Shown here in pieces: positions 17,549 to 42,705 of a stretch of DNA of 64,000 nt (positions within the stretch are counted from its first letter, which is position 1; every line of letters begins with the position of its first letter). Below the pieces are notes generated by a model. The model worked only from the letters and a program-made list of their open reading frames with translations, did not search any database and was not told where the DNA came from. The stretch is from positions 17,686 through 81,685 of the IMG/VR virus record IMGVR_UViG_3300025168_014097; one strand, given 5' to 3'. This DNA is from a virus. The translations under genes and the position numbers were made by a program.

Positions 17549-17947
17549 CTAACTAATTATTACAACTTTTTTCTTATATTTTTTAGCTTCACTTATCGTA
17601 TGATTAGTTTCTTTACCATCCTCTCCATTTGGAGTAAATATTATCATTACATCACAGTATTTTGCTAGCATAGTGTTTCTCGTAAAGAAGTTTCCTGGGT
17701 TGTATGTCTTATTATAATAATTTTCATGTAATGCTGAATATAAATTTTTTGGAGTGTGAGATGGATTGAACTCTAAGTATTCACATCCTAACTCTAACGC
17801 ATATTTCTTTGCATATTTATCCGCTCCTTGTTTGCATCCACTAGATGCTATTAATAAAGATTCACACTCATTCTTCAATTTATATATACATTCTTTTATC
17901 TTACGTTTATTTTCGTAATTGCGACTACCTACAATACCAACCTTCAT
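17549..17947 (-). CDS. SLOG/DprA-like nucleotide-binding protein
   Basis: MKVGIVGSR, SGCKQGAD, RN..LAKYCD, T.HTI..AKK..KKV. Confidence 0.7.
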   Translation of the reverse strand: MKVGIVGSRNYENKRKIKECIYKLKNECESLLIASSGCKQGADKYAKKYALELGCEYLEFNPSHTPKNLYSALHENYYNKTYNPGNFFTRNTMLAKYCDVMIIFTPNGEDGKETNHTISEAKKYKKKVVIIS

Positions 17948-21254: not shown

Positions 21255-23193
<1,939 letters not shown>

Positions 23194-23978: not shown

Positions 23979-26492
23979 TTAACTAAAATCGAAAAATTTC
24001 CGTATCATTTTCGTATTTTTTGCTGGTAATTTACCCCACTTCAATGCAGTGTAAAAAGCCGATAATTTATTTTCTAAATCTGACTGAAAGTGTCTATTAT
24101 AGTCGATATATTTTTCTATATATTGAACTATCTCAATCGGATCGTCATATCCCTTCATTGCTAAACTGTCATATCCATAAGGATTCTGTTTCAAGTATAC
24201 CCATTTAATTTTATCACTACTCCGAATCTCACCTAAATGCGTCTGCTTGAGTGCTGTGATCATATCATTGTACGAAATGGCTGCTTTGACATGTGCTGGG
24301 CATCCTTTACGAGTTGCTGTTCGTGTAGACCCATCAAATTCCAACTTATACTTTTGAATATTCTTTACACCCGTCGGCTTAGCTACATCTAGTATAGGAA
24401 GAGTTTCTATCTCATCTCGAAAGTCTAATACTTTATTATCAACATACTCTTGTGTTTTATTTTGTAGAATATCTTGCAATACTCCTGCCATAAAAGTTCT
24501 AAGTGCAGCTGGAAAGTTTGATCGTACAACATCAATACCCTTGACATCTAATTTATCTACTGGGTGTCCCTCAACGTTAATGATCCATTGAGCATATCGT
24601 TTCTTAGCTATCCATATTCCCGCCTTTGCAATAGTCTCTTGTTTAATGTCAAATCTGTGATCGTCTATATTAAACAATTTCTTAGCCATAACATCATATG
24701 TTTTATTCATATGATCTTGAACATCTTTTGCAATGATAAGAATCTTCTCAGACATTATTTTATCGTCTGTTATATCAACGTTGGGATACCGCTTCTTAAC
24801 AAGTGGAAGAGCTGAGAAGAATACTGAGTCGGTATCTGTATAGATGCAATGTTCCTTAACTTCTTCTAACTCTTTGCTATAATACTGATCACCTATTTTA
24901 GCTGTGGTCTTAATTACAGTTTGTCCTGTAGTGGTTACAGCTTCTGCGTTGTCCAAGTCAAAGAATCTAAACGATGCTAAACCTAATACCCCATACATTG
25001 AGTTCAATAGGATCTTTTGAGTATATTGCTTTTGATCGTAGAATTCAGCCTTGACCGTATCACCTTCTTTCTCATACTTCTTACGTAGGTTTTTATACTC
25101 AACTCTTTCTTCAAACCACGTATTCAAAATAGATGGAACAAGTCCAGGTCGCGACTTATCAAACATAACACCATTAGCAGCTACTGAGTAATTCTTTTCT
25201 TCAATGAATTCTTTATACTCAGCCATATGCATTTTCTTATTAGTTTTACCTAACTGAACCGTAAAGTTTCTATCTTTATCCTTATTGAACGCATCTTGAT
25301 CCCAATCAATTACCTTTCCCATTTTAGTTTCAGGACTGATATTGAGTGACATAATAATAGAAGGATATAGGGATGTTAAATCTAAATCGTATATCCACTC
25401 ATACCTACCAGGGTTTGGTACCTTAACAAATGCTCCAGTAAACTTACCTTCCCGCTTACGCTTTTCCGGTTTATTCTTTGTTACGATTCCTAGTCTATTA
25501 CAATATGTAAGAATTGCTCCTTCGAGATAATTAGATGTAATATGGATATACTCATATCGTACATGACCCTTATGACATATTGCTCTAGTCAGATCTAAGA
25601 ATTTTAACTTATCATCTAACCGCTTTACGATCTCAACATCATTTAAGTTATACTCAATATACTTATCAATATCCTTTTCGAATAAATCATCTAGAGTTCC
25701 ATCATACTCAATCTTCCCCAATCCAACTTCAGTCTGTCCTATTGCGTCTAGTCTATACGATGATCTTTCACCAATAGTATATTTACGATATAATGGTAGG
25801 TAATCTAAACAAGACACTCCTTCTATATAATAGCGATCTAAATGCTCTCTATAGTTTACCTTTCCAATGGGACTCAATGAGTTTGCATAATCATCACCCA
25901 ATACAGTTTTTATTCTATTGTAAAGATACGGTACATCAAATCCTTCAATGTTCCATCCAGTGAGAATCGTTGGATCTAATTCTACATACTTCTCTAGAAA
26001 TTTGTATAGAAGTTCTCCTTCAGTTTTACATATTACTACTTCACAATTGTCTTTAGATACACTCTTTACACGATCCTTTTCATCTAATACGAAAACTCCA
26101 TACTTATCTATCGATCGTTCATACCAAGCTATTGCTGTAATCTTATTTACTGGATCTCTCCAATCAGGGAAGCCTTGAAGTATTTCAGTCTCAATATCAA
26201 AGAACACTTCTCTATGATTTGTAGATGGAAAGTCTGAGTCTCCATACTCATGAATCAATGCTTTAGTTTCCATTGGAACATCATATTCATATAGTTTACC
26301 CGATCGTTCATCTTCTTCCGACCATCGTTTAACAACTCGTACAGTTTTACCATCAATAGCTTTCCTCTGACCTCTTGGATCTTTGAGGTAAGCATATCGA
26401 TACTTACTTATCGGGTTCTTGATATGACCTAACTCGTCATCCCAAATATGAACCGTACGAGTTTTGTAATCTACATAAATATTTTGATACAT
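23979..26492 (-). CDS. Family B DNA polymerase with 3'-5' exonuclease
   Basis: FFDIET, GWNIEGFD, YNLND, DLTSLYPS, KILLNSMYG, YTDTDS, KKRY. Confidence 0.96.
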   Translation of the reverse strand: MYQNIYVDYKTRTVHIWDDELGHIKNPISKYRYAYLKDPRGQRKAIDGKTVRVVKRWSEEDERSGKLYEYDVPMETKALIHEYGDSDFPSTNHREVFFDIETEILQGFPDWRDPVNKITAIAWYERSIDKYGVFVLDEKDRVKSVSKDNCEVVICKTEGELLYKFLEKYVELDPTILTGWNIEGFDVPYLYNRIKTVLGDDYANSLSPIGKVNYREHLDRYYIEGVSCLDYLPLYRKYTIGERSSYRLDAIGQTEVGLGKIEYDGTLDDLFEKDIDKYIEYNLNDVEIVKRLDDKLKFLDLTRAICHKGHVRYEYIHITSNYLEGAILTYCNRLGIVTKNKPEKRKREGKFTGAFVKVPNPGRYEWIYDLDLTSLYPSIIMSLNISPETKMGKVIDWDQDAFNKDKDRNFTVQLGKTNKKMHMAEYKEFIEEKNYSVAANGVMFDKSRPGLVPSILNTWFEERVEYKNLRKKYEKEGDTVKAEFYDQKQYTQKILLNSMYGVLGLASFRFFDLDNAEAVTTTGQTVIKTTAKIGDQYYSKELEEVKEHCIYTDTDSVFFSALPLVKKRYPNVDITDDKIMSEKILIIAKDVQDHMNKTYDVMAKKLFNIDDHRFDIKQETIAKAGIWIAKKRYAQWIINVEGHPVDKLDVKGIDVVRSNFPAALRTFMAGVLQDILQNKTQEYVDNKVLDFRDEIETLPILDVAKPTGVKNIQKYKLEFDGSTRTATRKGCPAHVKAAISYNDMITALKQTHLGEIRSSDKIKWVYLKQNPYGYDSLAMKGYDDPIEIVQYIEKYIDYNRHFQSDLENKLSAFYTALKWGKLPAKNTKMIRKFFDFS

Positions 26493-26496
26493 ATAT

Positions 26497-26652
26497 CTAA
26501 ACTAATTCTTCAATTATTCCTACAATTTCACTAACAATTAATACTCCCATTGCTATCGTTAAATCGAAAGGTAATAATATATACCCTAGTATTCTTATTC
26601 CTGATTTTACAAAACTAATTGTCTGATGCATTTTTGCGTCTGGTTGTTTCAT
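26497..26652 (-). CDS. Small hydrophobic hypothetical protein
   Basis: MKQPDAKMHQTISFVKSGIRILGY...EIVGIIEELV; fills the gap before polB. Confidence 0.55.
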   Translation of the reverse strand: MKQPDAKMHQTISFVKSGIRILGYILLPFDLTIAMGVLIVSEIVGIIEELV

Positions 26653-26653
26653 T

Positions 26654-27499
26654 TTACTTCTCCAATATATTGCGCATCCAATTAATATTTGCATTAATCA
26701 TTTTTTCTACCGACATTTGTTTATTGTCAATACTATGCTTCTTAGCTGTTCTCTGAATATGAAAGTCCACCTCTAATTCTGACTTACCGTTCTTCAATCC
26801 AGTTGTACTATCATCTAATAATACACCATTGATCCCATGCCAAAAAGGTGAAGAGCTATCATTCGTGTCCATAACACCTAAAGCTCTCTGTGTGATCAAT
26901 TCTCTTGGTCCATCGCCCAATCCTAAATAGTGATGGGAAAGATCTTTTCTTTGAGATACTAATCCTTCTCTACACATATAAGCAGTTGCAAAAATTCTAT
27001 TAGCTGCTATATCGTTCGTACCAGTCAACCCACAAAATGCATTAGGCATTCCTAATATAGACATTCCCATAACTTTTACTTCTGGAAGCTCTGCTAATCT
27101 TTTATAGCATTCTAACCATCCTTTATAGTTTCCCGTCTCTGATTGTGGTACTGCCATTATTTCATAGTCTTCATCCTTAGCCATTTCAATAAAAGCAACT
27201 GTGGAGTCGTATGTTACACTCCAAGGCTCGAATGGATAATCTGGCGCTACTACATAAGTTGGCTTCACACCACTGTCTGCAATTAACTTCATTAGTGGTT
27301 CTGGATCTAAACTCTTTTTAAATTCAAATGCACCATTATCACATATGATGGTATCACCTCTATCAGCTTTTTCTCTATAATAAGCTGCGTATTGTTTATC
27401 TTTTAATAAATGTGCTAATATCAAGTGAAAATCAGCATCTTCCGGTATAAGGTCTAAATACTCTACTGGAGCTATGTAACCAAATTTAGTTTTTTTCAT
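26654..27499 (-). CDS. dpdA: TGT-fold guanine transglycosylase, DpdA-like (possibly DpdA3 type)
   Basis: TIM-barrel strand motifs IICDNGAFE, VVAPD, MAVPQ, HHYLG and DTNDSS match the TGT/DpdA D-S/N-G, PD, VxQ, HxLG and DS pattern. The gene sits in a folE/queE/queD cluster. Confidence 0.62.
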   Translation of the reverse strand: MKKTKFGYIAPVEYLDLIPEDADFHLILAHLLKDKQYAAYYREKADRGDTIICDNGAFEFKKSLDPEPLMKLIADSGVKPTYVVAPDYPFEPWSVTYDSTVAFIEMAKDEDYEIMAVPQSETGNYKGWLECYKRLAELPEVKVMGMSILGMPNAFCGLTGTNDIAANRIFATAYMCREGLVSQRKDLSHHYLGLGDGPRELITQRALGVMDTNDSSSPFWHGINGVLLDDSTTGLKNGKSELEVDFHIQRTAKKHSIDNKQMSVEKMINANINWMRNILEK

Positions 27500-27947
27500 A
27501 TTTTTTCTTTTCCATATATTGTTTAACTTCTTGTAATCCTAATTCATTATCTTTAAGTAAATATTCTTCAAATGTATTTCGATCAAATTCAATATCCTTT
27601 GAATCTCCTCTACTACAAAATCGTTCAAAACACATATCTAAAGGTGTATTCATCCAAATCATTTCTGCTTCTGGATATGCTGATACAATCTCTACTTGTC
27701 TTGGCCCACTTATTACTACTCCTTTTTTCTTAGTAGTTCGTCTAAGTTCTCCAATCTGATAGATAATTTGTGTAGATATCTCTGGATGACCTTGTAGTTT
27801 ATCTCGCTTATTTGTATCTAATATTCCTCTGACTATGTCTGAGATTTCTATAAGATCATAATCTAAATCATCTGATAGTAATCTAGCTTCATAAGTTTTT
27901 CCGCTACAGATTGTTCCTGCGACAAATATTATATGATCTCTATACAT
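27486..27947 (-). CDS. P-loop nucleoside monophosphate kinase-like protein
   Basis: IFVAGTICSGKT, ISDIVR, VISGPR, CFERFCSRG lid motif. Start placed at ATG 27947. Confidence 0.72.
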   Translation of the reverse strand: MYRDHIIFVAGTICSGKTYEARLLSDDLDYDLIEISDIVRGILDTNKRDKLQGHPEISTQIIYQIGELRRTTKKKGVVISGPRQVEIVSAYPEAEMIWMNTPLDMCFERFCSRGDSKDIEFDRNTFEEYLLKDNELGLQEVKQYMEKKKYEKN

Positions 27948-28287
27948 AGACCTCTGCACCATTCTCGTTATCCTCAAATACGGAGACGTATACGCATTTG
28001 AATTCTTTTAATATTTCTTCAGCTAACATTTCACAGGACTTAGCTCCGAACTCATGTGTCCTGGATTGTAGATTATAATATGTATGTCCTAACCATTGTT
28101 CAATATCTCTCTTGAACATGATAAACTCTACATCTCTATCATCATGATTAACTTGTTTCTTAGCAGTGATAAACCATTTATGTCTATGCATACTTGATAA
28201 GAATCCTACTTCTGGGACTATTGATTGAGCATCTGGCCAATTATGTAATCCTTCTATTTCTAACTTTACTATTACGTTTGTCTTCAT
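27940..28287 (-). CDS. dpdL: Second QueD-like T-fold protein, DpdL-like (7-carboxy-7-deazaguanine decarboxylase candidate)
   Basis: EGLHNW, FLSSMHRHKW, DRDVEF, SCEMLA, VFEDNENGA: a T-fold layout with an LxxxHRH motif in place of QueD's CxxxHGH. The DpdL assignment rests on my recollection of that family's motif. Confidence 0.58.
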   Translation of the reverse strand: MKTNVIVKLEIEGLHNWPDAQSIVPEVGFLSSMHRHKWFITAKKQVNHDDRDVEFIMFKRDIEQWLGHTYYNLQSRTHEFGAKSCEMLAEEILKEFKCVYVSVFEDNENGAEVYV

Positions 28288-28296
28288 ATTACTCTT

Positions 28297-28325
28297 AATA
28301 TACGATTTTTTATTCGATCTAGCTA
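28297..28325 (-). promoter_or_regulatory. Degenerate copy of the early/middle promoter motif
   Basis: AATCGTATATT with a weak upstream TAGCTA at the same 17-nt spacing. Confidence 0.4.
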
Positions 28326-28841
28326 CTAAACCTTTAGAAACTTTTTATATGCACTTGACATTCTATCAAAAAATTTAGTTTTAAGAATAGCAGAATGAGC
28401 TTTATTAAGCTCTTCTCTATCTGCTATATTTATTAAAAATGTTGGTGCAAATGATCTGGGGTTGTATCCATCTATCTCAGTAACTTCATCGTTAGGATTA
28501 AAGCATATGATTTTATATTGTGGATATCTATTCTTTTTAAGTAGTTTGTTTAGAAAACTCTGATAGGATCTAGTTTCATTAGATGATAATTCACCTGAGT
28601 TTACTAGAGCAAATAAAGCTGACTTGTACTTACTTTTATGAAAAACCTCAACACGTTCTATAAACGTTTCAATATTTGGATCAAATACATCTATCATCAT
28701 TAGATCTTTATCTAATTCAGTACCAACAAATGGACAGACCGGCATATTTCCATATTCAGGACGTTTTTGTTTTATGATAAAGTCGAGATAACCCCTAACT
28801 CTCTTTTTTAGAGTTGTATATGGACATCCTGACTTTTTCAT
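28326..28841 (-). CDS. Hypothetical protein (DUF1415-like CPF motif)
   Basis: PVCPF and FNP motifs; lies inside the modification cluster. Confidence 0.55.
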   Translation of the reverse strand: MKKSGCPYTTLKKRVRGYLDFIIKQKRPEYGNMPVCPFVGTELDKDLMMIDVFDPNIETFIERVEVFHKSKYKSALFALVNSGELSSNETRSYQSFLNKLLKKNRYPQYKIICFNPNDEVTEIDGYNPRSFAPTFLINIADREELNKAHSAILKTKFFDRMSSAYKKFLKV

Positions 28842-28844
28842 ATC

Positions 28845-29339
28845 TTACTTAACGTCTTTATCTTTTTGCCACTGACCATCATATAATTCTGCAGAATTGT
28901 TCTCAAACATAATAATTTGAGCTAACCGTGCACCTTTTTCCAATACAACTGATTTGGTAAGTGTCATTACACCACCCATCTGATCCACTTCAAATCCTGG
29001 ATCATACACACCACTTGTTACAGTTCCACCCATTCTAAGAATAGATGATCTCTGACGGATGAATGCAGTTGTCTTATCATCTAGCTTACATCCTTGTTCA
29101 AACGTAACACTATAAATCCCTGGATGTAGTACCCACACATTCCGTTCATCACCTTCTGATTTTTCTACAGTTGATAATGTAACATCATCATATTTATCCA
29201 ACATAGTAGCATCTGAGAATAACATTCCACCTCTGATAGCTTTTACATCTACTACGGTTAGATCATAACCTACTTGAGCTTTTTTTCCTTTACCATTTGT
29301 GGTAAGCATTTGCTCAACTTGATTTGCATTTAATAACAT
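28845..29339 (-). CDS. Trimeric dUTPase/dCTP deaminase family protein
   Basis: GYDL, RSS..RMG, GVYDPGF, GARLAQ, YDGQWQ. Confidence 0.82.
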   Translation of the reverse strand: MLLNANQVEQMLTTNGKGKKAQVGYDLTVVDVKAIRGGMLFSDATMLDKYDDVTLSTVEKSEGDERNVWVLHPGIYSVTFEQGCKLDDKTTAFIRQRSSILRMGGTVTSGVYDPGFEVDQMGGVMTLTKSVVLEKGARLAQIIMFENNSAELYDGQWQKDKDVK

Positions 29340-29340
29340 A

Positions 29341-29490
29341 TTATATCTCGAATCCTAAATTCAATACCATAAGCCTAAATTTACTCCCATACCACTTTAC
29401 TTCTAATACAGTGAAGGTTCCAATTCTACATTCTAAATAATACTTTTCTTTTTTGTTTCCAGCATCAAAGCCGTTTATCCAATTTACCAT
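29341..29490 (-). CDS. Small hypothetical protein (49 aa)
   Basis: Below the ORF-track cutoff: MVNWINGFDAGNKKEKYYLECRIGTFTVLEVKWYGSKFRLMVLNLGFEI. Has a GGAG RBS and fills the gap exactly. Confidence 0.6.
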   Translation of the reverse strand: MVNWINGFDAGNKKEKYYLECRIGTFTVLEVKWYGSKFRLMVLNLGFEI

Positions 29491-29492
29491 TT

Positions 29493-30032
29493 TTATTCTC
29501 CGTTTTCTAATTTGTAAATAGCAGGAAGATTTCTACTTAATCCATTGTCGTCTAATCCATAACCAACGACCCACTCGTCGTTAATTTCAAATCCGTAAAC
29601 ATCCATTGGATGATCTCCACCTTTTCTTTTTAATAATGTTACTATCTTGATACTATTTGGTAATTGTGAACTGAGATGTAAATATACCTCTTTCATTGTT
29701 TCACCCGTATCAATTATATCTTCTATAATATACACATTTTTTCCCTGAATAGCAACTTCTATATCTTTTAATATTTTAACTCCTCCTGAGTTATCCTTTC
29801 CTTCATATGACTTAGCTCTTATAAAATCTATTTCACACAATCCGTGGTATTGTTTTACCAAGTCACTGAAGAACATAAATGCTCCATTTAATACGCATAT
29901 AAATACCGGTGGTGAGGATGCATTTCTTTTATCTTCAACTTGTTCTATCATTTGAGCCATCTCTACAATCCTTGATTGTATCTGGTCGTGTGTTATCATT
30001 TGTTCCATACTAAATATCTTTTCTTGTTTCAT
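29493..30032 (-). CDS. hpt: Hypoxanthine-guanine phosphoribosyltransferase
   Basis: ICVLNGAFMFFSDL, KSY, PRPP-binding IIEDIIDTGET, WVVGYGLD, RNLP. Start placed at ATG 30032. Confidence 0.9.
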   Translation of the reverse strand: MKQEKIFSMEQMITHDQIQSRIVEMAQMIEQVEDKRNASSPPVFICVLNGAFMFFSDLVKQYHGLCEIDFIRAKSYEGKDNSGGVKILKDIEVAIQGKNVYIIEDIIDTGETMKEVYLHLSSQLPNSIKIVTLLKRKGGDHPMDVYGFEINDEWVVGYGLDDNGLSRNLPAIYKLENGE

Positions 30033-30033
30033 G

Positions 30034-30498
30034 TTATTCTTTATATATCGCTGAATTATTGCCATTTTCCATAAACTCTACACTTGAGATTTTAACACGG
30101 CCATCAGTTTCTAGTTGTACAAACTTGTTTAGTTTATTAAACACATACTCTGCAAACTTCTCTGCTCCAGTAGCTTCAACTTCTCTTAACTGTATAACTC
30201 CTAGATCAGATAATGATTGAAACATTAATGCTTCTGGATCATCTTTAGCTATAACGACTGTATGATCAAACATATAGTCCATCCATGCTTTTGGTTGCAT
30301 ACCATCTATAAGATTTTTAGCTCTCTTCATGCCTCCGAAGTCCCATACCCAATTTTTATGATCCAACTCTCCTTCAAATACTACCTTGAATGATACAGCG
30401 TATCCATGTAAATATTTACAATGAGTTTCTACTGCTTTCCATTGTCTAAAGCAGCAAGTGAATCCACTGAATAGTTTGGTTGATTGATATTTTGCCAT
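30034..30498 (-). CDS. queD: 6-carboxy-5,6,7,8-tetrahydropterin synthase
   Basis: HCKYLHGY, WVWDFG, FDHT, GAEKFA, VEFMENGNNSA. Start placed at ATG 30498. Confidence 0.88.
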   Translation of the reverse strand: MAKYQSTKLFSGFTCCFRQWKAVETHCKYLHGYAVSFKVVFEGELDHKNWVWDFGGMKRAKNLIDGMQPKAWMDYMFDHTVVIAKDDPEALMFQSLSDLGVIQLREVEATGAEKFAEYVFNKLNKFVQLETDGRVKISSVEFMENGNNSAIYKE

Positions 30499-30505
30499 AT
30501 TGTAT

Positions 30506-30664
30506 TTACCCTTTATTGTTTTGTTTATCATATTGATGTATAGCTATTCTTAACTTTGTAATTAAATCTTTTACATCATCTGGATCTAGTGTTATTGCGC
30601 AACATGTATCCTCAATATGATCTTCTAGTTCTTTTACAATAGCATATATTTCTTTTACAGTCAT
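30506..30664 (-). CDS. Small hypothetical protein (52 aa)
   Basis: Below the ORF-track cutoff: MTVKEIYAIVKELEDHIEDTCCAITLDPDD... Its start overlaps the queE stop (TAATG). Confidence 0.55.
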   Translation of the reverse strand: MTVKEIYAIVKELEDHIEDTCCAITLDPDDVKDLITKLRIAIHQYDKQNNKG

Positions 30665-31437
30665 TATACACCACGTTCTATGTCATATGCTATAATATGA
30701 TCTCTCCCAGTCATATTATATCCATGTTCTGCTACCATTTCGAATACTAAAGGATACATCTGAATTAACGTTTCTCTCGTATCTCCTGCAGGCATTATAT
30801 AAGTCTTATCTTTCGGAATATCTAATTCAATCCTATACGCTTCAATTTCTGCAAGATTTTCATCTGTTCCATCCCATACTGGCTTGAAATGGTAATCTTT
30901 GTGAAATGACATCATTTGTTTTATTGCTTCCGTATTTTGTCTTTTTCTGTTATGTGTATCTATAAATCTTTGGTCAATAACTTTCCCAGCTGGAGTAATA
31001 GCTCCAACAACAGGAACGGAATTACTAAACTTAGGACTAAGACTAATAAGATCAATAGGATAATCGGTTTCAACAAAAGCAGATCCTTCAGTTTCAATAG
31101 TAATAATAATATTTCTTTCATAAGCAAAGTGTGTTAACTCATTAACCAACGCTGGGTGCATTGTTGGTGATCCACCAGTTAACATCATTTCTTTTACTTG
31201 TGGATTCTCGTCATATATTTTGACTATATCATTAAAGGTAAATGTACCTTTTTCTGGATGTATGGAGGTATACCATGAGTCGCACCATCCTCCTTCACCA
31301 AAGTAGCAACGGTGAGTACAACCAGTAGTTCTAACTGCAATTGTTGGTCTTCCAAACCTACTTCCTTCGGATTGAACACACCTATATACTTCTAGTATAG
31401 GTAATACCTTATCGTAATCTAAAATTCGTTTATTCAC
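30664..31437 (-). CDS. queE: 7-carboxy-7-deazaguanine synthase (radical SAM)
   Basis: VQSEG, VRTTGCTHRC...WCDS, LTGGSP, TIETEG, SLSPK. Confidence 0.9.
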   Translation of the reverse strand: MNKRILDYDKVLPILEVYRCVQSEGSRFGRPTIAVRTTGCTHRCYFGEGGWCDSWYTSIHPEKGTFTFNDIVKIYDENPQVKEMMLTGGSPTMHPALVNELTHFAYERNIIITIETEGSAFVETDYPIDLISLSPKFSNSVPVVGAITPAGKVIDQRFIDTHNRKRQNTEAIKQMMSFHKDYHFKPVWDGTDENLAEIEAYRIELDIPKDKTYIMPAGDTRETLIQMYPLVFEMVAEHGYNMTGRDHIIAYDIERGV

Positions 31438-32078
31438 TATGCCAATCTACTTTGATCTATTAGATTAAAAAATTCTGCCCTTGTAATATCAGCTTCGATA
31501 AATCTTCCAGACATTTGAGATGTTTTCATAACACTATCATGTTTAATACCTCTACACTTAACACAATTATGTTGTGATTCAATAACTACTGCAACTCCTC
31601 TATGTCCTTCACACAATTTTTCAACGTGATCGTGAATTTGCTTCGTCAATGATTCTTGAATATTTGGTCTTCTTGAATAAAAGTCAACTATACGGTTCAA
31701 CTTACTTAACCCAACTACCATATCAGTCTTCTCTTTTCCTGGGATGTAAGCTACATGAGCTACTCCTGAGAATGTAAGATTATGATGTGCACACATACTC
31801 ATTACCGGTATTCTTGTTTGGCATATTAGTCCCGTATAACCTTCATCGTTTGGGAATGCAGTAATAACTGGTTCAGCTCCTATCGATCCTGCGATCAGGT
31901 CATTTACCCATGCTTTTGCAACTCTTTGTGGAGTTCGATCACTATGCTTGTCGGCTTTCCAATCAAATCCTAATGCTTCTAAAAATTGACCGTAATGTAC
32001 TGCAGCTTGTTCAATCATTAAAGCTTTCTCAGCTTCTGTTCTTGGCATATTGCCATTCGCTTTTTTTAATAAATCCAT
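31437..32078 (-). CDS. folE: GTP cyclohydrolase I
   Basis: [34 protein letters not shown]. Confidence 0.95.
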
Positions 32079-32111
32079 AACCTTTTCTTTTCTTTATTAT
32101 TATATTACTTA

Positions 32112-32141
32112 AATATAAGAAATATAATTCGTTTATACAAC
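32112..32141 (-). promoter_or_regulatory. Conserved early/middle promoter motif upstream of folE
   Basis: GTTGTAT-N17-TATATT, preceded by TTTCT. Confidence 0.6.
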
Positions 32142-32155
32142 AGTTTCTACTTTTT

Positions 32156-32350
32156 TTATTTGATCCATTCTTCTAGTTCAGTTGGTGTTGGCCATGTTAA
32201 AGCTTTTTGACACTTATCACACACCCATCTTGTATCACTTACCTTTACAGTCTTTATCGTTTGATTTTTGTGCCTGCACTTGTTTTGATAGTCCTCTATT
32301 TCCTTCTCGATTTGCTTCAACCGTTTGGTCATATCGTTCATGTTTATCAT
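32156..32350 (-). CDS. Small zinc-ribbon hypothetical protein
   Basis: Coiled coil followed by C.H...WVCDKC. Start uncertain. Confidence 0.5.
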   Translation of the reverse strand: MINMNDMTKRLKQIEKEIEDYQNKCRHKNQTIKTVKVSDTRWVCDKCQKALTWPTPTELEEWIK

Positions 32351-32412
32351 GAGATCTCTCCGTAGTGTTACGTAACATTTCCTCATAATATAACCGTTCA
32401 ATCCAATCTTCT

Positions 32413-34272
32413 TTATACAATCTCACAAGAACCTCCTGCGCAGGCTAGTTCACCTTTAAGATCAGTTTCATCTTTTTCTTCTACAATATTAGATAAGTCT
32501 ATTTCAGTTAACGACTTTAACATTTCGTTATATTTTTCTTCTGTGATATCTTCGAATGGTGCTTGTGTATATGTTCCACCATTATAAGGTAGTACTGATA
32601 AACCATTATAGTGTTTTCTATTTTCCCACATCCATTCACCCGCATATTCCCACTCATTGTCTCTTAACGAAACGGTTGCAGACACGTTATGTGTATTAGA
32701 TCCATTCCTATGTCCTGGAGACACCCATTCTTGAGCTACCTTCTTTACTCGTTCTAATAACTGGAATGGAGATTCAGTTCGCAATATTGAACCTTCTGGT
32801 GATTTCTGTGGTATTTGAATTACAGCTGTATCGTGTGGACTGAAGTATTCGTCTTCAACTAGCTCTGGATGGTGTTCGTTGAGATATTTATACATTGATT
32901 CATTTTTACCAACTCTAATTCTTCTGATATAATAATCGTTGTGCCATGCGTGGATACCTGATGATGTACCTAATGTCAATGAGGTAGTTCCTGCAGGCTT
33001 GACTGTTGTACATCTTGCTGATTGCTTAATTCCTATAAGTTTTGCAACTCTAGCATTTTCCTTCTTAACAATTTTTGCAGCTGATTTCATATCATATCCT
33101 AATACTACACCCGAGCCAATACCTGTCATTGATATTCCTATCAATGCATCTTTTTCAGTAGTATCTTGCCATACCTCTCTTAAATAGTGAAAGTTTGTAT
33201 ATCCTGCTTGAAGAGTTCCAATAAATGCAGCTGACTTTACCCTTGCTTCAAAATCTTCTTGTGATTCTATATCACTAGCATTTACTTCACATAGATTACA
33301 AAATTGATACGGTCGTAAAGCTATTTCACAGCAAGGATTAGTTCCCCAGTCTTTATCATTGTTAAGATATATACCAGGTTCTCCTGCTCCAGACAACTCT
33401 ACTCTTTTCCAAAGATCCATGAAAAATTCTTTAGTTATTTTGTGTCTCATTAAACATGCTGAGTTATTTGCTCTACCCCTCTGTGGATTCAATTCCCACC
33501 AATTACCACTTTTACAACCGATCATTTCATTATCATCAGCGCTAAATAAACTAATAAGAGCAGCTCTTCTTATTCCTCCTGCTAATACAGCATCTGCAAT
33601 GTGGCAAACTATATCGTGGACTTCAATTGTCGATAATTTATCTCCCGATTCTTTTTCCTTCAACATTCCATCAATCTTAACCAAACATTCTTTTAATGGT
33701 TGAGGTCCTGGTGCTTTACCACCCGATGTTACAAGTCTTGCACCTTTTGGTCTAATATCAGAATAATCAAATTCAACACGACTTCCACCACCATTCATGT
33801 ATGATTTCATAAGAACTTTTACTGCGTCTGCCCATCCTTCAATACTATCACTAATCAAATATCTTTTCTTCCTTTTAGGATATGGTTTTTGAATTACTGA
33901 GAGTTGACTTACATGATGTTTCTGCACTGAATACCCCACTCCCGTTCCACCTAGCAATAAGAACATGCATTCACTGAATGATTCAATTGAATCGATTGGA
34001 AGATATGCACAGTTATATACTCTATTAGGTGATATCTCAATTGGCTTACCTGCAAATTGCATAGATCTCATAGATGGTAATATCTTTTTATCATATACCA
34101 TTTTATACACTTCTTCAATATCAGCTTTGAGTGCTGGGTATTTTTTTTGATGCATTTGCATATTACGCGTTACTAATTCTTCCCATGTCTCTCTTCTATT
34201 CAGTTCTGGCACGTACTTTGCATACTTCATATAGACAGTAATGTCTGATAGAATTTTGTTTGAAATTTCCAT
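32413..34272 (-). CDS. nrdJ: Class II (adenosylcobalamin-dependent) ribonucleotide reductase, RTPR-like
   Basis: RRETW, YNCA, GGTGVG, GGIRRAA, NPCCEI, CNL, TTVKPAGT, C-terminal CAGGSC. No beta subunit gene nearby. Confidence 0.9.
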   Translation of the reverse strand: MEISNKILSDITVYMKYAKYVPELNRRETWEELVTRNMQMHQKKYPALKADIEEVYKMVYDKKILPSMRSMQFAGKPIEISPNRVYNCAYLPIDSIESFSECMFLLLGGTGVGYSVQKHHVSQLSVIQKPYPKRKKRYLISDSIEGWADAVKVLMKSYMNGGGSRVEFDYSDIRPKGARLVTSGGKAPGPQPLKECLVKIDGMLKEKESGDKLSTIEVHDIVCHIADAVLAGGIRRAALISLFSADDNEMIGCKSGNWWELNPQRGRANNSACLMRHKITKEFFMDLWKRVELSGAGEPGIYLNNDKDWGTNPCCEIALRPYQFCNLCEVNASDIESQEDFEARVKSAAFIGTLQAGYTNFHYLREVWQDTTEKDALIGISMTGIGSGVVLGYDMKSAAKIVKKENARVAKLIGIKQSARCTTVKPAGTTSLTLGTSSGIHAWHNDYYIRRIRVGKNESMYKYLNEHHPELVEDEYFSPHDTAVIQIPQKSPEGSILRTESPFQLLERVKKVAQEWVSPGHRNGSNTHNVSATVSLRDNEWEYAGEWMWENRKHYNGLSVLPYNGGTYTQAPFEDITEEKYNEMLKSLTEIDLSNIVEEKDETDLKGELACAGGSCEIV

Positions 34273-39635: not shown

Positions 39636-41411
39636 TTACTCTATCAAGCTTTGGAGTTTATGGTTCACAGGATACGGTCCTAATAGTTTTGTTCCTTCCA
39701 TTATCATTGTTAGTTTTGAACTGCTGTTAGTTCCAGTTCTTAATAGTGTATAATACTTTTGATTATCCTTTGTAAGTTCAGATAATACCCAACATGTAAT
39801 TGTATAGTATGTTTTCTTAGGAGAAGGTTCAGCTTTTACAGCTAACATTTTGAAATCGATTTCATTCTCACTCAACCGTTTTTCAACTGCATCTGCTGTA
39901 CCTAGATATGTATATGGAGTTTTACCAAATGCACCATATACTTTCCATACAGGTAATTTTGTTCCACCAAATAACATCTCCGCTGTTAGATCGCTAATAA
40001 TTCCTTTCATCTTGCTTACATCAGATACTAAATCAATTATCAATTGAGCTGTTGCTATATTTGCAATTAATGATAATACTGTGGTACTTCCTGGATGTTT
40101 ATCATTCGACAGTTTTATATTTTTTACGGGCTTTACTTTTTTGAATGTTCCTATTGCGTATTTATTAGATTTTACTTTTTTATTTAGAGTATCTATATAT
40201 CCATTTACATTTTTAATCGCTTGCATTGGATTTTTTGCAACCTCATCAATTTCAGCTTCTAGTTTTCCTGATATTGTACCTTCTTTTATTGTATATCCTG
40301 ATAGTAGAGCTGATACCGCTGATGGTGGAATAGATTGTCCGTTTTGCAATCCTCCTAGGAATTTATTTCTAAAAGAAGAAATTGCGGAATTGAACTTATT
40401 CTTTATAGTATTAAATGATTTAGTCGCAAAAGCTTTTATATTATCAAGAAAACCTTCTGTGAGTACTTCATATACCAAGCCTTCATTTGTAGTAGGCTTT
40501 TCGCCTTTTAGAATACTAGTTGCATCTCCAGTCGATATTCCAAGATCATATACACCCCTGAGACTTTTCGTAACTTTACCCATTTGTGCACCTGATGCTG
40601 ATTTCTTTAGTGAAACTTGCCAATACTTGATACTATCTCCAACTTTCACATATCCATCAGTTGTTCCTTCTATAGCATTACTTTCATCTGCGATTGCTGC
40701 TAGTAATGCACTTTTTGATACATTGGATATCACACAGTCTGCAGTATTAGCTTTAGAACCTTTTCTTGTTAGTCCTCTAGTTTTTTCTGCAGTGTAGAAG
40801 TCTCTAATTCCTGCATGGATGAAGTGCTTTGCCGAACCTCCTACCACCTTACTACAATATATGCTCATTCCTTTTGCAAGTGCACAGCATAATGCTATAT
40901 CTTGCATACTATTTTCATGGAATTCTAGGTTTGTTGAGTCGAATGTTGGTAGTGTAAAATTACCGATAATTGATGTTCCTGATCCATCCCAATCACCTGA
41001 GCCAAACTTTAACTGTTTTAGTGCAGTTGTTGTTATCTTGATAACATTTTTACATTGAGCGATATAATCTTCTACATCCTTTTGCTTTTTAACTTTTATT
41101 TTCTTAAATACTGATGGGAGATTCAATAAAGGATCTATTGCACTGGTAGAGATACCACCAATGCCAATACAAGCTGCAGTTTCCATCATTGCTGTATTTA
41201 ACGAAGCATCCCTCTTACTTTCAAATATGTGACCTTTTCCCGATAAAGAGCTTATAGCATTTTCAATTAATTGGGTTGAATATTTTTTAGATACCAATAC
41301 TTCACGTAATATTGCAAGATCTTTTGCGTTATATGGTTTATCAGCATATCCGTGTGGATGTGTGTAAAACCAATCTTCTATTACATCATCAATTAGGTAG
41401 TTTAAGTTCAT
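39636..41411 (-). CDS. Large hypothetical protein, possible PD-(D/E)XK-fold nuclease / internal head protein
   Basis: 591 aa, Lys-rich; contains TADCVI...WQVSLKK. Start placed at ATG 41411. Confidence 0.6.
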   Translation of the reverse strand: MNLNYLIDDVIEDWFYTHPHGYADKPYNAKDLAILREVLVSKKYSTQLIENAISSLSGKGHIFESKRDASLNTAMMETAACIGIGGISTSAIDPLLNLPSVFKKIKVKKQKDVEDYIAQCKNVIKITTTALKQLKFGSGDWDGSGTSIIGNFTLPTFDSTNLEFHENSMQDIALCCALAKGMSIYCSKVVGGSAKHFIHAGIRDFYTAEKTRGLTRKGSKANTADCVISNVSKSALLAAIADESNAIEGTTDGYVKVGDSIKYWQVSLKKSASGAQMGKVTKSLRGVYDLGISTGDATSILKGEKPTTNEGLVYEVLTEGFLDNIKAFATKSFNTIKNKFNSAISSFRNKFLGGLQNGQSIPPSAVSALLSGYTIKEGTISGKLEAEIDEVAKNPMQAIKNVNGYIDTLNKKVKSNKYAIGTFKKVKPVKNIKLSNDKHPGSTTVLSLIANIATAQLIIDLVSDVSKMKGIISDLTAEMLFGGTKLPVWKVYGAFGKTPYTYLGTADAVEKRLSENEIDFKMLAVKAEPSPKKTYYTITCWVLSELTKDNQKYYTLLRTGTNSSSKLTMIMEGTKLLGPYPVNHKLQSLIE

Positions 41412-42705
41412 GTTCAATGTCCATCATATTATTGTAATTATACCCATGTTTCACCTTTACTGGAAACTTGATGGTGTTTATTACGTCTTTTATAAATATC
41501 TCTTTGTCGGACAAATCAAAGTCAAATAAGAAGGAATCGTACGTATATAGTACAAGTTTTGATTGATACTTCTGCATAACCCCGTAAATCTCCGATAAAA
41601 TCGAAATATTACTCTCTGTTTCAAGTGATTGGATGTAATAATTAAACAATTTCTGTGGTGTCATGTTATTTAACACATGTTTATACATCGGTCTCTTAAA
41701 TAAGTATGTAGGAATGTACTTTTCCGCGTTAAATTGATGCCATAACTCTTTTATTAGCTTATCTACTTTTGCAAAGAACTCTATCTGCAGGAATTCTTTT
41801 GGTACTCCACCATAAAGTATTCTAAAACTTATCTCCTTAGACTCCTTATACTCTTTCTTAGTTAGAGTCTGCTTATCAAAATACTGTCTACCAAGATACT
41901 CGTGTATAGATCCATCTGGTAGTTCGTAATCGAGAACATCAGCTATCAATCTCAAGTGATAAGCATCGAAATCCATCTCTATGAGTTTACCATTTGGAAA
42001 CCTACTTATAAATCTTTCTCGAGAACCATCTTCTTTGTTAAGTGCGGCATAGTTTATGCTCTGGAATCTGTTTGAGGGTCTTCCAGTCGTTGTATATGGG
42101 TTATACTGTGTGTATTCGAAGCCATCTTTTGTATACAATCCCTGTTTTTCTATTTCATGTAATAATGGAATAGTTATATTATTATATTTATCAAAATATT
42201 CTTGGTTAATAACCGTTTCAGGATCTTTGGAAATAAAATCATAATTAGATCTAACACGGTCTATAGATGATGCTCTCTCAACGTGTTTAGTTATTGGAAT
42301 AATTAAATTTGTATCTTTACGATTCCAAAACTTAGATGTAAAAAAATCATGAGCTGTAGTACTCGTTTCATCTATAGGTATAATTTGTCCGTAATTTATC
42401 CACTCCACCATATTCATATCAATCAATTCAATAGTTGGTAACATAAAATACATCAGACTTTTCTTGTCTATTGTATTTAATTTTTTACCACTTAGCTTTG
42501 TATTGACTTGTTCTAAAGTAGCTGTCCAAACAGCTTCTGGGTGGTTCATGGGAATTACATGAATTTCATTCATATTGAAAAAAATCAACATACTCAATGA
42601 ATTATACATTGGATGATCCGTATCATTACAATATATGGGGATTATTACGGAATAATCCGGAATATCAAATTCCATTAGTGATTCATGTGATTCTATTATA
42701 TTCAT
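41389..42705 (-). CDS. Short, divergent family A DNA polymerase
   Basis: TTGRPSN, motif A DFDAYHLRL, motif B KEISFRILYG, NYYIQS, motif C YTYDSF. Confidence 0.8.
   Translation of the reverse strand: MNIIESHESLMEFDIPDYSVIIPIYCNDTDHPMYNSLSMLIFFNMNEIHVIPMNHPEAVWTATLEQVNTKLSGKKLNTIDKKSLMYFMLPTIELIDMNMVEWINYGQIIPIDETSTTAHDFFTSKFWNRKDTNLIIPITKHVERASSIDRVRSNYDFISKDPETVINQEYFDKYNNITIPLLHEIEKQGLYTKDGFEYTQYNPYTTTGRPSNRFQSINYAALNKEDGSRERFISRFPNGKLIEMDFDAYHLRLIADVLDYELPDGSIHEYLGRQYFDKQTLTKKEYKESKEISFRILYGGVPKEFLQIEFFAKVDKLIKELWHQFNAEKYIPTYLFKRPMYKHVLNNMTPQKLFNYYIQSLETESNISILSEIYGVMQKYQSKLVLYTYDSFLFDFDLSDKEIFIKDVINTIKFPVKVKHGYNYNNMMDIEHELKLPN

Follow-up and report, generated by a model that had tools for sequence, protein, structure and literature searches.

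The 64,000-nucleotide stretch of marine phage DNA analysed here (the window; positions 17,686 to 81,685 of the IMG/VR virus record IMGVR_UViG_3300025168_014097) contains, between positions 26654 and 34272, a cluster of genes for the modification of DNA with 7-deazaguanine. The parent IMG/VR contig has 81,685 bases and a CheckV completeness of about 42%. Judged from its genes, the cluster belongs, as a new and diverged member, to the type found in Cellulophaga phage phiST, in which a DpdA-type transglycosylase, DpdA3, is encoded without QueC, and its predicted product is 2'-deoxy-7-deazaguanosine (dDG), in complete replacement of dG. The genes that surround DpdA3, here and in related loci, point to a possible synthesis of the modified nucleotide before replication.

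Every gene of the region lies on the minus strand, and gene identities were assigned by profile searches with Pfam, PHROGs and NCBIfam. A class II (B12) ribonucleotide reductase (RNR; 32413-34272, PF02867 and PF21995) flanks the cluster and is followed by FolE, a GTP cyclohydrolase I (31437-32078; PF01227, 155 bits), QueE, a radical-SAM 7-carboxy-7-deazaguanine (CDG) synthase (30664-31437; phrog_2076, E 1.3e-45), QueD, a CPH4 synthase with the variant motif CxxxHGY (30034-30531; phrog_2389, E 2.4e-37), and Hpt, a hypoxanthine-guanine phosphoribosyltransferase (29493-30065; TIGR01203, 153 bits against a cut-off of 150). Further along are a nucleoside triphosphatase (NTPase) of the dUTPase fold, termed DCD-like (28845-29339; PF22769 DCD, 49.8 bits), DpdL, a QueD-like T-fold protein of 115 amino acids (27940-28287; phrog_17812, E 6e-25), a P-loop protein of 163 amino acids resembling nucleoside monophosphate (NMP) kinases (27486-27977; AAA_18, 31.7 bits, cut-off 29.4), and DpdA3 itself, a minimal TGT-like transglycosylase of 281 amino acids (26654-27499), which is without a Pfam family and was recognised by tblastn to phiST gp042. 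The family B DNA polymerase (PolB; 23979-26492; PF00136, 151 bits, and PF03104, 76 bits) lies at the far end, and in the window the cluster is situated inside the replication module. By open reading frame (ORF) coordinates, DpdL overlaps the kinase by 38 nt and the kinase overlaps DpdA3 by 14 nt.

These assignments agree with an earlier interpretation of the same DNA, the sequence-only reading, in all the identities that it had given between nrdJ and polB; four small ORFs of 81, 52, 171 and 65 amino acids were missing from its list. It had also reported no queC or queF in the window, and across the 81,685-base contig (rated about 42% complete by CheckV, so that the negative applies to the contig and not to the whole phage) no Pfam match was found to QueC, QueF, a canonical TGT or nucleoside diphosphate kinase (NDK). 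Its description of a DpdA-type cluster without QueC, in which DpdL would turn CDG into 7-deazaguanine, is supported by the homology to phiST DpdA3 and DpdL. A megablast search of the region against phage records gave no match, and an IMG/VR scan with a single protein returned one relative, 94% identical, as its sole match. That relative, the contig L005, carries the same gene set, and dozens of IMG/VR loci have it with the order of the genes varied; the arrangement is therefore not a product of chance.

For the comparison, 79 IMG/VR loci collected by an alignment-based scan were combined with four phage records. Iterated profiles, for which the window proteins and recurrent neighbours served as seeds, were run against the ORFs of these loci, and representatives of the neighbour families were named by Pfam. 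Dereplication of DpdA3 at 70% identity resulted in 42 lineages, 38 of which have at least 3 kb of sequence on both sides of the gene.

Genes for the synthesis of the free base are recognisable in the window, with some divergence from the reference models. FolE is matched by the NCBIfam FolE models at 145-156 bits, under their equivalog cut-offs, and QueE by TIGR03365 at E 5e-15, likewise under the cut-off. The CxxxHGY variant of QueD is shared with phiST, and HGY is found in 36 of the 55 QueD matches of DpdA3 loci, phiST included. DpdL was the name given by Cui et al. (2023) to a phiST protein of 115 amino acids, a proposed CDG decarboxylase with the motif LxxxHRHxF (PMC10516641). The window protein is 38% identical to phiST DpdL (E 4e-24) and carries LxxxHRH in place of CxxxHGH, as do 47 of the 50 DpdL matches of the survey; the Phe of the published motif sits one position later. 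Homology shows that FolE, QueD and QueE together convert GTP to the free base CDG, from which DpdL, the published candidate decarboxylase, would produce 7-deazaguanine. Just upstream of DpdL, a family of about 153 amino acids without a Pfam match was observed in nine loci from five lineages (for example, L056 8335-8796).

The phiST locus has the order QueD, QueE, FolE, MazG-like NTPase, the 115-residue protein, an AAA_18 ATPase, gp042 and polymerase. FolE, QueD with CxxxHGY and QueE, then DpdL, the AAA_18 kinase (CGPG_00066 in phiST) and DpdA3, are common to both clusters and keep the same order; both clusters directly precede a DNA polymerase, and QueC is found in neither. The differences are that the NTPase is of the MazG type in phiST and of the dUTPase fold in the window, that a canonical Hpt, the class II RNR and a DUF1415-like ORF are additional in the window, that the polymerase is Pol III alpha in phiST and PolB in the window, and that the two DpdA3 proteins are only 26% identical. 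In phiST DNA no dG peak was detected, and dDG amounted to 302,000 per 10^6 nucleotides (Cui et al. 2023, PMC10516641); expression of DpdA3 and DpdL alone yielded no dDG in E. coli (PMC10516641). As a separate observation, a DEDDh exonuclease gene lies just before QueD in phiST.

DpdA3 of the window aligns with phiST gp042 (CGPG_00065) over 98% of the query by tblastn (E 3e-12), and a profile built from 42 members, the window protein among them, matches CPT_0056 of phage CP220 with E 1.4e-44. Membership in the family also agrees with its position beside FolE, QueD and QueE and with the lack of a Pfam TGT match in the contig. The family comprises 3,140 clusters of 50% identity at E <=0.001 and 1,436 at E <=1e-10 when searched with a 26-sequence profile. 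Residues D54, N55, R168, H190, L192, G193 and D214 are invariant in the 42 dereplicated members, and F58 and D87 are each present in 41 of them. The relationship to characterised transglycosylases is distant: none of the 42 members matched Pfam TGT or DpdA, TGT was absent from a PDB profile search with DpdA3, and NCBIfam was likewise blind to the relationship. Alignment by hhalign with single-sequence targets was statistically weak for both E. coli Tgt (probability 17%, E 0.0014) and phage 9g DpdA1 (probability 6%, E 0.006); both alignments nevertheless put D-N-G-A-F-E (D54) and D-S-S-S (D214) on the two catalytic Asp motifs. The superfamily has a general acid/base, a base-recognition and a nucleophile Asp, whose roles have been described for Salmonella DpdA (PMC10164549), and D54, D87 and D214 of DpdA3 were set against these. 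The cluster of Atlas feature neighbours of DpdA3 (score 0.96) contains Pfam DpdA in 17% of its members, and Cui et al., who named phiST gp042 DpdA3, report an HHpred value of 98.8% to the TGT family (PMC10516641).

Phage 9g DpdA1 and the DpdA/DpdB system of Salmonella Montevideo share with DpdA3 the superfamily, the catalytic Asp motifs and the CDG-pathway genes alongside. The tail that follows the nucleophile Asp (D214) has only 40-84 residues in DpdA3 (191 in a fusion with DUF3310) and contains no conserved Cys column; consequently, DpdA3 has neither a Zn site nor a large Ins8. Bacterial DpdA, in contrast, has both of these and depends on the ATPase DpdB for the insertion of preQ0 into DNA (PMC10164549), and no such partner accompanies DpdA3. 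Among public records, the DpdA3-like genes of Bacillus phages BSTP5, BSTP8, BSTP10, BSTP12 and BSP7 were deposited as "polynucleotide kinase", "NadR", "integrase" or hypothetical proteins; these genes (L085 5899-6687 in BSTP10) belong to a cluster that includes Gat-QueC and have a P-loop protein on one side and DNA polymerase I on the other. In 11 of the 42 lineages, a gene for an RNase_T/DEDD exonuclease of about 208 residues was also seen no more than 3 kb from DpdA3 (for example, L031 12647-13273).

A trio consisting of an NTPase, DpdA3 and a small kinase is present in all three phages reported to be fully modified, namely phiST, CP220 and immuto_2-6A, the complete replacement of G in the latter two being reported by Cui et al. 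(PMC10516641). In phiST the trio is formed by MazG, the AAA_18 kinase and DpdA3. In CP220 it consists of an HD-AAA_33 protein (CPT_0055), DpdA3 (CPT_0056) and an AAA_28 kinase, standing alone between the tail sheath and tail tube genes. The immuto_2-6A locus encodes an NTPase of the PRA-PH/MazG type, DpdA3, DpdN and an AAA_28 kinase, plus a phosphoribosyltransferase (PRT). CP220 and immuto_2-6A resemble the window in that DpdA3 has one or two small kinases and a nucleotide phosphohydrolase at its sides. They differ from it in their end products and tailoring genes (QueC, QueF, DpdN), in the class of the NTPase (an HD domain in CP220, PRA-PH/MazG in immuto_2-6A) and in the kinase families, AAA_33 and AAA_28. 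A small P-loop protein is likewise encoded directly upstream of DpdA3 in Bacillus phage BSTP10 and Chryseobacterium phage MA9V-3.

The survey extends this association beyond the isolated phages. Among the 38 well-flanked lineages, 31 have an NTPase (DCD-like or MazG) no more than 3 kb from DpdA3, and in 26 of them the distance is at most 1 kb; 22 have a kinase at up to 3 kb (AAA_18 in nine, AAA_28 in six, DNMK in four and DUF3310 in three), 13 of these at up to 100 bp. At least one of the two is found within 3 kb in 34 lineages, and both in 19. In a ranking of neighbours within 3 kb that takes in all 42 lineages, the DCD-like gene comes first (31), ahead of DpdL (24), QueD (18), QueE (17) and FolE (13, and FolE2 in nine more). 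In every row of one clade of the DpdA3 tree (28 rows, support 100/99), the DCD-like gene stands beside DpdA3. As a control, the same profiles were applied to 17 IMG/VR loci of 9g-type DpdA1. They recovered QueD, QueE and FolE in 17/17 and QueC in 16/17, and found a kinase in 0/17, a DCD-like NTPase in 0/17 and a PRT in 0/17; the one MazG match lay 4.5 kb away. The annotated 9g genome agrees, with no kinase, DCD-like NTPase or PRT beside its DpdA. General synteny of the replication module was considered as the whole explanation of the linkage and was rejected because of the CP220 island among tail genes and the DpdA1 control.

The kinases linked to DpdA3 are diverse. The window protein is 28% identical to phiST CGPG_00066 (E 4e-15) and has a weak NCBIfam match to archaeal (d)CMP kinase; no solved relative was found for it by sequence. 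According to Cui et al. (2023), homologues of CGPG_00066 are absent from the other deazaguanine phages (PMC10516641); in our sample they were found in 16 loci, the window and phiST being counted. Altogether, five unrelated kinase types abut DpdA3: AAA_18, AAA_28, AAA_33, T4 DNMK and DUF3310/T7 gp1.7. The P-loop proteins of 150-200 amino acids have NMP or deoxynucleoside kinase models as their best matches. DUF3310 has been linked to the T7 gp1.7 nucleotide kinase, and gp1.7 phosphorylates dTMP and dGMP (PMC10700055, PMC11897194). The slot that follows DpdA3 proteins 71-74% identical to one another may be occupied by DUF3310, by a T4-type DNMK or by nothing. Fusions were also detected. Gene EVB91_073 of Rhizobium phage RHph_I1_18 encodes a DpdA3-DUF3310 fusion, and nine of 153 family representatives are at least 320 amino acids long, four of the nine with a C-terminal DUF3310 by a local profile. 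In one locus (L065) an AAA_28 kinase is fused to a dUTPase 535 bp from DpdA3, and CP220 CPT_0055 joins an HD phosphohydrolase to an AAA_33 kinase. Phage Ahp1 has a canonical gp1-type DNMK (168 bits) elsewhere in its genome, besides the divergent copy next to DpdA3. The kinase goes with DpdA3 and not with the PRT.

The NTPase of the window matches the dUTPase family PF00692 with only 25.4 bits, as compared with 49.8 for DCD (PF22769), and TIGR02274 with 30.8 bits (cut-off 92.8). It belongs to a clade of 34 rows made up of DpdA3-linked NTPases, which is separated by a long, fully supported branch (SH-aLRT 100) from seven canonical dUTPases; the latter include second copies from L011 and L013. 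A canonical dUTPase also occurs elsewhere in the genomes of Aeromonas phage Ahp1 (85 bits) and Vibrio phage D479 (63 bits), besides the DCD-like gene. With the separate clade and the coexisting canonical enzymes of Ahp1, D479, L011 and L013, annotation of the linked NTPase as a plain dUTPase was rejected. The window protein retains the dUTPase-family motifs and, in the alignment to 4xjc, has Gly where the deaminase has Glu, which we take to be the catalytic residue of dCTP deaminase; lacking this Glu, it was not assigned as a dCTP deaminase (Dcd) either. Other NTPases are swapped into the same context beside DpdA3, of the MazG type in phiST and immuto_2-6A and with an HD domain in CP220. The window NTPase is proposed as a candidate dGTP-clearing enzyme, a deoxynucleoside triphosphate (dNTP) pyrophosphatase.

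A purine PRT was found in 30 of the 84 DpdA3 loci and in 14 of the 38 well-flanked lineages; none was found in the 18.8-kb phiST locus. The Hpt type is carried by the window, L005 and L011. The best solved relatives of the window Hpt are HG(X)PRTs (E 2e-34), with which the phosphoribosyl pyrophosphate (PRPP) loop and the C-terminal hood align (4qri, 1hgx). The other 25 distinct PRTs are short (about 130-165 amino acids, one of 222), and all seven of those tested matched the xanthine PRT (Gpt) model best, each under the cut-off. All 28 distinct PRTs keep Asp as the fifth residue of the PRPP loop, and this position is also conserved in solved HG(X)PRTs; in HGPRT this residue acts on N7 of the purine, an atom that 7-deazaguanine lacks. 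Because this Asp is kept, given its role at N7, and because no PRT was found in the phiST locus, we read the PRT as an enzyme of guanine salvage. Such salvage helps pre- and post-replicative schemes alike and does not discriminate between them. Only 15 of the 84 loci have an RNR gene at 10 kb or less from DpdA3. The window RNR has TIGR02505 (monomeric RTPR, an NTP reductase) as its best model at 267.7 bits, under the cut-off of 340; the NrdJ diphosphate-reductase models match less well, and the Pfam barrel and B12-insertion domains score above their cut-offs. This enzyme probably serves general dNTP supply.

Phage T4 makes hydroxymethylcytosine by means of a dCTPase, a dCMP hydroxymethylase and a dNMP kinase. 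A pre-replicative route of the same kind is the mechanism that we favour for the DpdA3 clusters, with a probability that we place midway between acceptance and rejection: an NTPase, a base swap by DpdA3 on a free deoxynucleotide, and a kinase would lead to 7-deaza-dGTP. The linked dUTPase-fold NTPase would hydrolyse dGTP to dGMP, thereby clearing the canonical nucleotide and supplying the acceptor. DpdA3 would then act on the free deoxynucleotide, dGMP being the likeliest, and put 7-deazaguanine in the place of guanine, which would be released. The dedicated kinase would phosphorylate 7-deaza-dGMP to the diphosphate, a cellular NDP kinase would complete 7-deaza-dGTP (no NDK Pfam match being present in the contig), and PolB, the presumed user of the modified dNTP, would polymerise it. 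Hpt, or Gpt in other loci, would return the released guanine through GMP to GTP for FolE, so that the displaced guanine would become the next deaza base. Acceptance of 7-deaza-dGTP by common polymerases is well established (PMC6884629).

The likeness to T4 and to the Z-genome route, in which PurZ (PMC12783734) acts with DatZ/MazZ, is one of logic only, without homology: the canonical dNTP is taken out by an NTPase, the monophosphate is made anew by a second enzyme, and phosphorylation by a kinase brings it back to the triphosphate pool. The middle enzyme differs, since here it would be a proposed base exchanger of the TGT fold, not a synthase or hydroxymethylase. Such a scheme would account for complete replacement, for the failed reconstitution with two genes and for the free ADG nucleoside in CP220-infected cells (cited in PMC10516641). 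The post-replicative DpdA systems differ in that their modification is partial, reaching up to 27% of dG in 9g (PMC6884629) and less than 0.1% of G with bacterial DpdA (PMC10516641). We further suggest, with the balance of evidence no more for it than against it, that DpdA3 is a deoxynucleotide:7-deazaguanine transglycosylase and not a DNA transglycosylase, and that all fully substituted deazaguanine genomes (phiST, CP220, immuto_2-6A and the window phage) are built pre-replicatively, the PRTs closing a recycling loop.

The published view, which we consider less probable though still a substantial contender, is that DpdA3 is a very efficient DNA transglycosylase acting on finished DNA, the NTPase, kinase, PRT and RNR being ordinary nucleotide supply and the PRT perhaps recycling guanine. 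It agrees with the retention in DpdA3 of the catalytic Asp pair and the base-stacking Phe of TGT/DpdA, with the activity of all characterised superfamily members on polynucleotides (PMC10164549, PMC10516641) and with the position of the window cluster within a replication module, and a paper of December 2025 cites deazaguanine as an example of modification at the nucleic-acid level (PMC12783734). It leaves unexplained the DpdA3-kinase fusions, the in-place swaps of unrelated kinases, the presence of additional NTPases and kinases in genomes that already have the canonical enzymes, the CP220 trio among tail genes and the absence of these partners from DpdA1 loci; moreover, an enzyme that destroys dGTP would oppose the making of G-containing DNA first. 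Several points weigh against the nucleotide-level scheme. Cui et al. (2023) concluded that insertion is post-replicative, a DpdA homologue being present (PMC10516641), and the catalytic residues cannot separate DNA from nucleotide as the substrate. All mechanistic claims made here are drawn from gene neighbourhood. Because of their shared ancestry, the lineages that are counted do not represent independent events; DpdA3 loci were themselves the training set of the kinase profiles; and the DpdA1 control represents one phage subfamily only. Sixteen of the 38 lineages have no kinase within 3 kb, and four have neither kinase nor NTPase. The DUF3310 proteins of 98 amino acids may be counted as putative kinases only, and the NTPase near DpdA3 belongs to the canonical dUTPases in two loci (L061 and L065).

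Two other explanations concern the accessory genes. The small P-loop proteins might be ATPase partners that help DpdA3 to reach bases in the duplex, as DpdB does, and not kinases. This is quite unlikely in our estimate: bacterial DpdA does need the ATPase DpdB for preQ0 insertion (PMC10164549), and the AAA_18 and AAA_28 matches are generic P-loop matches near their cut-offs, but the proteins have 150-200 amino acids and match NMP or deoxynucleoside kinase models best, the same slot is also filled by T4 DNMK and by the P-loop-free DUF3310, and the NTPase is left unexplained. The sequence-only reading had proposed that HPRT, the kinase, the class II RNR and PolB carry the free deaza base to a dNTP and into DNA; on such a route HPRT would act on 7-deazaguanine or CDG, and DpdA3 would have only a proofreading or auxiliary role. 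All four genes are indeed adjacent in the window, and purine PRTs recur in the DpdA3 loci at the frequencies given above. We regard this route as very improbable, and HPRT on a deaza base was rejected as the main route on the distribution of PRT and RNR genes and the ordinary PRT sequences: phiST DNA is fully dDG with no PRT found at the locus, few loci have an RNR nearby, the PRTs fall into two ordinary 6-oxopurine families with the fifth-position Asp retained in every one, the kinases include deoxynucleotide-specific families (T4 DNMK, T7 gp1.7-type), and the universally present DpdA3 would be left without a role. What survives of that proposal is the pre-replicative principle, supported by the kinase linkage; its entry step through HPRT and then RNR is not supported. 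Likewise, the co-occurrence that it had looked to, of hpt and the kinase with dpdA/dpdL, is seen for the kinase (22/38 lineages within 3 kb), with a PRT in 14/38. The alternative that it had offered, a recycling of excised guanine by HPRT and the kinase, fits the PRT but not the kinase.

How every guanine of some phage genomes comes to be replaced by a 7-deazaguanine has been an open question since 2019, to which the gene context returns with a concrete scheme of three enzymes. A route through modified dGTP was floated in that year for Campylobacter phages (PMC6884629) and set aside in 2023 on the discovery of DpdA3 (PMC10516641). In the literature searched, no paper was found that gives DpdA3 a nucleotide-level role, and, as far as our searches show, the linkage to kinase, NTPase and PRT, the fusions and the scheme of NTPase, DpdA3 and kinase are not in print, although the supplementary gene tables of Cui et al. 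may list neighbours counted here as new. If the favoured scheme is true, the role of the DpdA3 branch (the 1,436 clusters at E <=1e-10) would change, and DpdA3 would be the first enzyme of the TGT superfamily to act on free nucleotides, in what would be a fourth logic for the natural synthesis of non-canonical dNTPs. It would also explain why expression of DpdA3 and DpdL alone failed, and would offer an enzymatic route to 7-deaza-dGTP analogues.

Four additional ORFs lie in the region. The ORF of 81 amino acids (32156-32401, minus strand, as are the following) has only sub-threshold Pfam matches and homologues in two loci, the window and L005. The ORF of 52 amino acids (30506-30664) has a homologue in none of the other loci and may be no gene. 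The ORF of 171 amino acids (28326-28841) has a DUF1415/DUF6875-like lead from Atlas feature neighbours (0.94-0.96) and no notable match in Pfam, PHROG or NCBIfam; it is absent from L005 and from all other DpdA3 loci, and for want of a homologue in the related loci it was dropped from the pathway as probably an accessory insertion outside the core. The ORF of 65 amino acids (26497-26694), located between DpdA3 and PolB, is conserved in nine loci and unrelated to phiST gp043. A promoter and terminator scan gave 54 sites, as compared with 55.6 expected from shuffles, and no minus-strand terminator was found. An ORF of 438 amino acids further away in the window (41389-42705, minus strand) had no sequence match to solved structures at E <=0.01. 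The nearest isolate relative of PolB, from Microcystis phage Mel-JY01, is only 44% identical, and the phage has no close cultured relative. Just downstream of PolB, GroEL (546 amino acids) and GroES (102 amino acids) are encoded at 21255-23193 on the minus strand, and in immuto_2-6A GroES/GroEL likewise directly follow the polymerase.

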